Shown here piece after piece: positions 1,073-2,614 of a stretch of 64,000 nucleotides of DNA. Position 1 is the stretch's first letter. Each line of letters opens with the position of its first letter. The notes under the pieces were generated by a model that searched no databases, was not told where the DNA came from, and saw only the letters and a list, made by a program, of their open reading frames with translations. Position numbers and translations under genes: made by a program. The stretch comes from Candidatus Heimdallarchaeota archaeon (lineage in GTDB: Archaea; Asgardarchaeota; Heimdallarchaeia; Heimdallarchaeales; Heimdallarchaeaceae): assembly GCA_018238545.1 (NCBI GenBank), contig JABCTC010000007.1, positions 1 through 64,000 on the forward strand. Direction: 5' to 3'.

Positions 1073-2614
1073 CTAAGGAATGAAGTTGTCTGCAACATAC
1101 CAATAAGATTCATATGCATCTATAATACCCCACCCAATATAATCTGGTCCAAAATAACCATTTTCAAAGTATATTTCTATCGTACTATATGCCCCTGAAA
1201 CTTCTCCACCATAATATATAGGTGGTTCACCCATTTCATCACCTGTATACCTCAATGTAGTTTGTAATTGCTGTATAGTTACTGGACGATAAAGTTGTTT
1301 TATAAGTGCTATAATACCTGTAGTTAATGCAACAGCATTACACGTTCCTGCAAAGGAAGAACTTCCCTCAATAATATTCCAAGCAATCTCTGTTTGCATA
1401 TGGATTGAGGTTGCATCAACACCATAACCACTATTCGCTGAATAGTATTTATACCAAGATTGCTCCACATTTTCACCATCATATATTCCTGTAATTCCAA
1501 TAACTGATTCAAAACAAGTTGGATAGTTCGCATCTTCTTTATCGGTGAAAATAGTCGGAGAAATTTCTTCTTCACCTGCTGGACTTAGAGTAATAGTTTT
1601 ATGAAGGTTATCCCCATCATATGCAATGGTATCAAACCAACCTTCAAAATCATTCCAATTATACGTAGTCCCCCAGAAACTTTCCATTTCGAGATTGCTC
1701 ATAATCCAAGATTTTGAATAGGACCAATATAAGCTTAATATATTAATATCATAAGATTCAAAACGATTATTCTCAGCTAGCCATTTAATTGCTGCAATTT
1801 CTTTTGTTGTTACACCTTTGTGTTCAATAAAGATGTAGTTTGCATGAGGCGCGATTTGTGTTAAAACACTTAATACATTAGTTCCATGTGAATAGCCAGT
1901 ATGACCTATATTAACGTCTCTAATTTCTGACCATTTTTGTGCTGCTGATAATTGATCCCAATTAGATGTTAATTGTTTATATCCTAAAGTACTGGAATCA
2001 AAAACTAGATATTCAATGTCACGATAAACATTGGAGTATTGTTTTAAAATCATTGGATGATAATCTGAATTAACAGCATCATCGAATCCAAGACCATCAC
2101 CCATAACACAAATGGTAACTCCTTGACCTCCCTTGCCAAGATTATGAAGTTCATTGATTCTTAAATCTTGCATATCGTCTTCATCGATTGAAGAAAATGT
2201 AGTAAACGCCCTTGTTGTAAAATATTTCTCATATGAGAAAGGACGAAATCTGACACAATTTACCTCTATTTTCAAGGTATGAGCTCTGATTGGAAGGTTA
2301 GAAATGTAAATATTCACTATGGTACTCGAAAAAGTTCCTTTCCGTACTCCATCAATATATACAACCGAAGACTCATATTCCCAACCTGAATATACGACTA
2401 CTCTGTAATTTATATTTATTGAATTCCAGTATTCATATTCTCCATTGGTCGTTGGCTTATAAATAATAACACGACCGCTCTGTGCCGCTGTAGTGTTTAT
2501 AGGTAAGAAGCAACAAACAAAAGAAAATATAATTAGGATGCTCAAAATTAATAATCGTGTTGCATTCTTTCTGTTAAAACTTTCCGCTAAAAAATTCATT
2601 ACTATAACCTCCAT
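1073..2614 (-). CDS. Secreted subtilisin-like (S8) protein with Cys at the catalytic Ser position
   Basis: Signal peptide, small beta-rich domain, then GQGVTICVMGDG, HGTNV, SPAGE, FAGTCNAVALTTGIIAL, GWGIIDA. Confidence 0.85.
   Translation of the reverse strand: MEVIVMNFLAESFNRKNATRLLILSILIIFSFVCCFLPINTTAAQSGRVIIYKPTTNGEYEYWNSININYRVVVYSGWEYESSVVYIDGVRKGTFSSTIVNIYISNLPIRAHTLKIEVNCVRFRPFSYEKYFTTRAFTTFSSIDEDDMQDLRINELHNLGKGGQGVTICVMGDGLGFDDAVNSDYHPMILKQYSNVYRDIEYLVFDSSTLGYKQLTSNWDQLSAAQKWSEIRDVNIGHTGYSHGTNVLSVLTQIAPHANYIFIEHKGVTTKEIAAIKWLAENNRFESYDINILSLYWSYSKSWIMSNLEMESFWGTTYNWNDFEGWFDTIAYDGDNLHKTITLSPAGEEEISPTIFTDKEDANYPTCFESVIGITGIYDGENVEQSWYKYYSANSGYGVDATSIHMQTEIAWNIIEGSSSFAGTCNAVALTTGIIALIKQLYRPVTIQQLQTTLRYTGDEMGEPPIYYGGEVSGAYSTIEIYFENGYFGPDYIGWGIIDAYESYWYVADNFIP

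Follow-up and report, generated by a model that had tools for sequence, protein, structure and literature searches.

A clade of secreted subtilase homologues with a cysteine at the nucleophile position in one genus of Heimdallarchaeota

The locus and the encoded protein

The window, that is, the whole stretch of 64,000 nucleotides analysed here, carries near the contig edge a gene for a secreted subtilase homologue with a cysteine in the column of the catalytic serine. The flanking genes in the window are archaeal housekeeping genes. The gene, its parts and its close neighbours are:

1..396 (+), TnpB gene of the IS200/IS605 type, of which the contig edge leaves the 3' end
478..678 (-), about 60 codons from the 5' end of a gene for a secreted protein (872 amino acids in the sister species), cut beside the IS end; unrelated to the two-Ig partner described below
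1073..2614 (-), secreted Cys-nucleophile subtilase homologue, an open reading frame of 513 amino acids with no stop
1076..2194 (-), subtilisin-fold domain, residues 141-513, from Foldseek and VIA
1743..1744 (-), place of a 2-nt deletion in the sister species (L030, L031), whose gene is thereby split at codon 291; intact in the window
2195..2482 (-), all-beta N-terminal domain, about residues 45-140, where an I9 propeptide is expected, from DSSP of the model
2483..2599 (-), signal-peptide-like N-terminus with a basic n-region and a hydrophobic helix, ending ..TTAA at a putative cleavage site
2789..4312 (-), co-oriented beta-helix (NosD-like) surface protein

The preliminary description of this locus reported a full-length reading frame with a signal peptide. 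Both hold, with 513 open codons and a signal-like hydrophobic helix at residues 15-36. The true start is more likely Met6 at 2599 (508 amino acids), which has GGAGGT just 5' and gives the 508 amino acids called by the database. No C-terminal anchor was found in the protein, and a Pfam-type domain search gave no match to an I9 propeptide. The all-beta N-terminal domain is presumably Ig-like; a match to Big_7 at 0.76 is a lead only. The AlphaFold model (pLDDT 82.7) comprises the signal-like helix, the all-beta domain and a subtilisin fold from residue 141. The fold was recognised by Foldseek (E 2.5e-13) and by VIA comparison to subtilisins (Z 27-28.6, rmsd about 3, 254-298 residues aligned). The PF00082 score of 17.4 bits (E 0.003) is below the gathering cut-off of 21.8; PF00082 matches are present in homologues.

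A run contig spanning 512-2511, possibly from the source sample, differs from the window at two places only, neither of them at the Cys codon. The runs with matching sequence are marine sediment and cold seep metagenomes. A sequencing error as the source of Cys425 was rejected: the run contig agrees and the Cys is kept across the clade described below.

Several further observations concern the window. Within positions 1-680, run contigs diverge into several flanks at 436-438, which marks the IS200/IS605 element as multi-copy. A partial duplicate (3' third) of an amidohydrolase gene at 4353-4823 lies upstream of the full copy at 5112-6326. It sits at the junction of the beta-helix/subtilase block insertion, and the sister species carries the partial copy in the corresponding position. 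More distant genes code for a WD40 beta-propeller protein of 520 amino acids (16450-18012, -), a TrmB-type HTH fused to an apolipoprotein-like helical repeat (747 amino acids; 42491-44734, +) and a Dna2-like nuclease-helicase (Dna2, PD-(D/E)XK, AAA_11/12) with a C-terminal RING finger (45103-48144, +).

Phylogeny and active site of the Cys clade

The searches covered two protein collections, of 5.8 billion and 1.8 billion sequences, together with 399 genomes from the phylum. Two related groups were found, a Cys group and a Ser sister group. Among genomes, both are confined to the genus of the host, and the Cys group occurs in 5 of its 24 genomes. Homologues of the window protein are named Heimdallarchaeaceae or Heimdallarchaeota. 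The Ser sisters have a normal site: IIDD or IIED, HGT, AAGN and GTSNACP. In a tree rooted by ordinary subtilases, the 12 Cys rows form one clade with a support of 100/100 and a long stem, nested among the Ser rows. Short fragments and one duplicate were omitted from the tree, and the frameshifted sister copy was read through with X. The window copy is the most basal branch of the clade.

All 12 clade members in the tree, and three fragments besides, retain the Cys. Both TGT and TGC are used for it; the Ser codon is AGT or AGC in 9 of 9 Ser sisters examined, one transversion away. Within the clade, dN/dS is mostly 0.1-0.3 at a pS of about 0.7; these are rough values, with synonymous sites near saturation. 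The Cys and the His are invariant over sequences 42-68% identical. The clade arose once from the AGY-Ser sister family and is under purifying selection. Its loci are not independent, because all sequences come from one genus.

The active-site positions of the window protein, in BPN' numbering for the columns, are:

1328..1330 (-), Ala429, Pro225 column; Ala in the window sublineage, Val or Thr elsewhere in the clade
1340..1342 (-), Cys425 (TGT), Ser221 column; motif GTCNAVA, clade-invariant
1571..1582 (-), Pro345 to Glu348, oxyanion loop; Pro at 152 invariant, 155 variable
1667..1720 (-), variable clade-specific insertion, about residues 299-316; touches the partner in the model of a relative
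1727..1729 (-), Tyr296, Ser125 column by alignment; Tyr or Phe in the clade; start of the substrate-pairing strand
1886..1888 (-), His243 in the HGT motif, equivalent to His64; intact and invariant in the clade
2096..2101 (-), Gly172-Asp173, columns 32-33; catalytic Asp32 lost, Asp33 ancestral and invariant

Cys425 falls exactly on Cys221 when aligned with the engineered BPN' chains of peptiligase and thiol-subtilisin. The exchange of Ser to Cys at the nucleophile and the intact HGT motif, both noted in the preliminary description, are borne out and conserved. Invariant in the clade are Cys221, His64, Asp33, Pro152, Trp126 and a new His265. Every member has lost the acid at 32, the Asp two residues ahead of the His and Pro225. 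A disulfide at Cys425 is unlikely: among 12 Cys-bearing columns of the catalytic domain only C169 and C425 are invariant, and C169 (column 29) is also found in the Ser sisters. Column 29 lies near residue 119 in BPN'. Cys425, His243, Asp173 and the clade-specific His265 might conceivably make up a metal site.

Other active-site claims had to be revised. The Asp motif had been called shifted; as an account of its origin this fails, since the Ser sisters already have Asp-Asp at 32-33, and the first Asp was lost. Column 32 is G, S, V or I in the Cys clade and D or E in all Ser sisters. The Asp-Asp motif of the Ser sisters resembles the DDG motif of furin and kexin, and the furin equivalent of Asp33 lines the S2 pocket. 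Asp33 faces the partner in the complex model of P0005, a relative. Alignment with relatives places Pro345 in the Ala152 column and Glu348 in the Asn155 column. The replacement of the oxyanion Asn by Glu is correct for the window protein but not for the clade, in which column 155 is E, N, V, S, A or D. Likewise, Pro(+4) to Ala describes the window protein, and Pro225 is lost clade-wide, but Ala225 is limited to this sublineage. The motif GTC-x-A-x-A suggested for homologue searches is not shared by the clade: of 9 non-redundant rows, 8 carry Val or Thr in column 225. Nor is Ala225 a signature, since it also occurs in Ser subtilases of the host genome and of the family. The view that the site is remodelled rather than decayed is supported at clade level by the alignments, by monophyly, low dN/dS and the invariance of Cys and His with loss of Pro225 throughout. 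The Cys is invariant in the clade; neither GTS nor random residues occur at this site.

Ser125 can hydrogen-bond Asp32 in peptiligase (PMC7921005), which makes a joint loss of Ser125 and Asp32 coherent. Judged by its residues, the active site is a Cys-His dyad and not a copy of subtiligase, because the engineered ligases retain Asp32 and Asn155. The protein should not be filed as a serine peptidase, because three defining residues fail despite S8 descent and fold.

The Ser sister family has features of its own. Departures from the usual residues were noted among Ser sisters (L020, L040, P0014): Glu replaces Asp32 in some (IIED), giving an E-H-S variant, Gln is found at 155 in two, and Phe replaces Gly219 in two. 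The family also has a conserved convergent neighbour of about 245 amino acids, secreted, C-terminally anchored and beta-rich, with no Pfam match. It is possibly an inhibitor of the Ser sister enzyme. The neighbour genes are:

L082:9849-10589
L083:9227-9970
L084:7408-8112
L040:7548-8294
L053:1714-2445

The two-Ig partner and cassette arrays

In relatives, a partner gene is located directly downstream of the Cys gene at about ten loci (G018, G024, G028, G038, L029, two at L034, two at L039 and two at L094-L096). It was absent beside 8 of 8 Ser-sister genes with usable flanks. The partner of about 320 amino acids has a signal peptide, a C-terminal membrane helix and a basic tail, and belongs to no family in Pfam or NCBIfam. 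Its fold consists of two tandem Ig-like domains, with an adhesin repeat as the best structural match (Z 10.6, rmsd 3.1, 184 aligned). The two-Ig module is also found C-terminally in larger surface proteins without the Gly-Phe loop described below (G000 C82:97959-99821 and C26:68920-71571), suggesting that the partner evolved from a surface-protein stalk.

A complex model of P0005 with its own partner scored 0.83, the best control 0.00. The calibration mark for this score was reached by 58 of 80 solved pairs and by 2 of 110 mismatched pairs; these counts are a rough guide for the present case. At least 96% of contacts are common to the runs, and the partner pLDDT is at least 82. In the model, partner residues 229-236 pair with the 125-127 strand, with residue 233 or 234 as the putative P1 residue, and His, Cys and Asp33 are in the interface. 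The Gly-Phe hairpin loop of the partner is predicted to sit in the cleft as substrates and canonical inhibitors do. Gly231-Phe232 is kept in all cognate-type partners and falls within a four-residue deletion in paralogous non-cognate domains. On the enzyme side, non-catalytic interface positions are 19% identical compared to 58% for the whole domain and form its most variable part. Loop conservation and interface variability support the predicted binding.

The relatives' loci are cassette arrays. L034 has the order full gene, partner, 5'-less half gene, partner; L094-L096 have half gene, partner, shorter remnant, partner. Short 3' remnants of the enzyme gene lie between or after partner genes in G018, G024 and G033. 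Partners without an intact enzyme are present in G033 and G026, at a completeness of 87-90%. One cassette type starts after the His. L039a and L034a, from separate assemblies, are 96-99% identical over codons 45-190 and 52-76% thereafter; L039a is identical to L051 of G038. The 5' body is constant while the 3' parts are exchanged, each cassette comes with a partner gene, and partner genes form strings; on gene comparison, this is the architecture of polymorphic toxin-immunity systems. At L039, two divergent Cys-subtilase/partner units (1434-2714 and 5935-7533) with a near-identical 5' part flank three housekeeping genes.

The window copy is a special case. A cognate loop-bearing partner was not found beside the gene or in the host genome (91.8% complete; the contig ends 1 kb downstream), and positions 1-1200 of the window hold no partner remnant. 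The host genome has two loop-less partner paralogue domains only. The sister species has the same block, with the 2-nt deletion on six contigs; another relative is a fragment beside TnpB. The dN/dS of the window copy against the sister species is 0.20-0.31, with 0.22 for the adjoining beta-helix gene, so the window copy was under selection recently; it may be orphaned. It is best explained as a basal member with its partner lost or missing from the assembly. The beta-helix protein, earlier proposed as a substrate, is one of 32 such ORFs in the host genome. A beta-helix gene is near the Cys gene in three independent lineages only (window/L030, L029 and L052), and the neighbour that the clade conserves is another protein; this proposal is not supported.

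Possible functions and comparison with known systems

The explanation that fits best, although it stays slightly short of probable, is a Cys-His protease effector with a cognate bait-loop inhibitor in a polymorphic effector-immunity cassette system. In its favour are the invariant Cys and His, the dedicated bait loop, the orphan partners and the cassettes. Neighbouring cells that are not kin would be the target: the His-activated Cys would attack a peptide bond of their surface proteins and form a thioester, which would be resolved by slow or narrow cleavage of these proteins. On its own surface, the producer would be shielded by the membrane-anchored bait-loop partner blocking the cleft. A swap of the 3' half together with the partner would change the specificity. 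Cleavage would need compensation, because Ser-to-Cys alone makes subtilisin inactive on ordinary amides, as known for thiol-subtilisin (PMC6642262), and because Asp32 and Asn155 are also lost. In directed evolution, a nucleophile switch could be rescued by about a dozen changes (PMC4576821). The long stem branch, as reconstructed in the tree, leaves room for such changes. Several points weaken the effector explanation. The window gene is intact without a loop-bearing partner, which an active self-damaging toxin should need, and one cassette type begins downstream of the His codon. The complex was modelled for the relative P0005 and not for the window protein, and models tend to put exposed loops into protease clefts. 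The more general proposal, an Asgard conflict or self-recognition system with a working Cys-His dyad lacking Asp and the oxyanion Asn, a new class of Ig-fold bait-loop inhibitors and swapping of a half-domain with its inhibitor, is plausible but tentative.

The strongest alternative, rather unlikely but to be taken seriously, is a non-hydrolytic lock and key. A secreted binding protein would be caught by the membrane partner via the old substrate cleft, possibly as a stable thioester, and act in recognising kin, in adhesion or in surface display, much as a pseudoprotease receptor does. Of the four catalytic-site residues two are gone, and the variation at position 155 resembles that of a specificity residue; the anchor is on the partner and not on the enzyme; swappable matched pairs also fit allorecognition, and the window copy has survived with no partner. 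Inactive subtilases with binding roles are known, CspC among them (PMC7200643). On the other side, a dead enzyme should drift at its nucleophile, yet Cys and His do not vary in this clade, and accumulated orphan partner genes are more easily explained as protection. A natural subtiligase, in which the Cys acyl-enzyme is resolved by an amine to ligate or cross-link surface proteins, is improbable. Each member has Cys221 and lacks Pro225. Aminolysis is favoured by a thioester intermediate, and in peptiligase 14 of the 20 residues tried at 225 perform better than Pro (PMC7921005). In the model the partner loop occupies the acyl-side cleft, and it could act as acyl donor. However, Ala225 is not a clade motif and occurs in Ser enzymes, engineered ligases require activated esters, and an acceptor or sorting motif was not found. 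The ligase function first proposed for the window protein is not supported; subtiligase keeps Asp32 and Asn155 (PMC7921005), both gone here. Presence in 5 of 24 genomes and cassette swapping also fit a housekeeping sortase poorly. A general sortase for Heimdall surface proteins was rejected for its too patchy distribution.

A dedicated processing or shedding enzyme, cutting its own partner or surface proteins with the same loop for maturation or signalling, is quite improbable. Docking in the model is substrate-like, and S8 enzymes often process operon neighbours (PMC9424270). But the loop forms the tip of a hairpin within an Ig domain, where a cut would release nothing, and the orphan partners and cassettes are left unexplained. 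Simple decay of a subtilase gene is very improbable. It would account for the frameshifted copy of the sister species, the IS-adjacent fragment of another relative and a window sublineage without a partner, in which the window copy may be orphaned. For the clade, decay is excluded by dN/dS and invariance, and the window copy itself evolves at a ratio similar to that of the beta-helix gene.

The effector-immunity explanation finds its closest parallel in the polymorphic toxin-immunity systems. As described (Zhang et al. 2012, PMC3482391), they have the same constant 5' body, recombined 3' half and stand-alone cassettes with a partner; strings of partner genes and orphan partners likewise occur in the Cys-subtilase arrays. 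In contrast to polymorphic toxins, what is exchanged here amounts to one half of a single homologous domain, a two-Ig protein of the cell surface serves as the partner, and the toxin role is putative. In S8-PTS, the S8 enzymes are processing peptidases and not the variable module, as far as the accessible text of that study goes (PMC9424270). With the canonical subtilisin inhibitors (eglin c, CI2, SSI), the partner shares a predicted loop that pairs with the 125-127 strand beside His and nucleophile. It differs from them in its unrelated tandem Ig-like fold and its membrane anchor, and its role as an inhibitor is putative. If the cassette reading is true, an extracellular protease-inhibitor system of conflict or recognition with Ig-fold surface proteins exists in the archaea closest to eukaryotes.

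The S8 subtilases (MEROPS S8/clan SB, PF00082; subtilisin BPN', Tk-subtilisin, furin/Kex2) share the fold, the motif order, His64 and secretion with the Cys clade. The clade differs by the Cys nucleophile, the absence of Asp32, Ser125 replaced by Tyr or Phe, Ala152 replaced by Pro, no fixed Asn155, no I9 propeptide and an insertion that follows the 125-127 strand. For natural S8 enzymes, the triads described are D-H-S and E-H-S (PMC3937732; PMC11593635); sedolisins have S-E-D. A natural Cys subtilase was not found in a literature search of incomplete coverage, and no Ser/Cys switch in clan SB is documented in the searchable literature. Thiol-subtilisin, subtiligase and peptiligase/omniligase (PDB 7AM3-7AM8, 5OX2) share Cys221 and the absence of Pro225 and are the top sequence and Foldseek matches. 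This rank is partly due to the common Cys and the common lack of a calcium loop; by VIA, the engineered Cys chains tie with many Ser subtilases. They differ by keeping Asp32 and Asn155 and by acting on activated esters.

In subtilisin, Ser-to-Cys abolishes the protease activity on ordinary amides (PMC6642262). A natural clade with a traceable Ser sister, one base apart, makes the compensation of the nucleophile switch directly testable. Candidate compensating changes are the loss of Asp32, Tyr or Phe at 125, Pro152, His265 and the absence of Pro225, and the cognate partner is a ready substrate or inhibitor sequence for such tests. The clade could also supply new scaffolds for peptide ligase engineering. 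Clan PA (chymotrypsin fold; TEV, 3C-like) has another fold than the Cys subtilase, and some of its Cys members act as Cys-His dyads. It likewise comprises a natural Ser/Cys switch within one fold (PMC4576821). A working Cys-His dyad in the Heimdallarchaeota clade, if true, would make clan SB a mixed-nucleophile clan.
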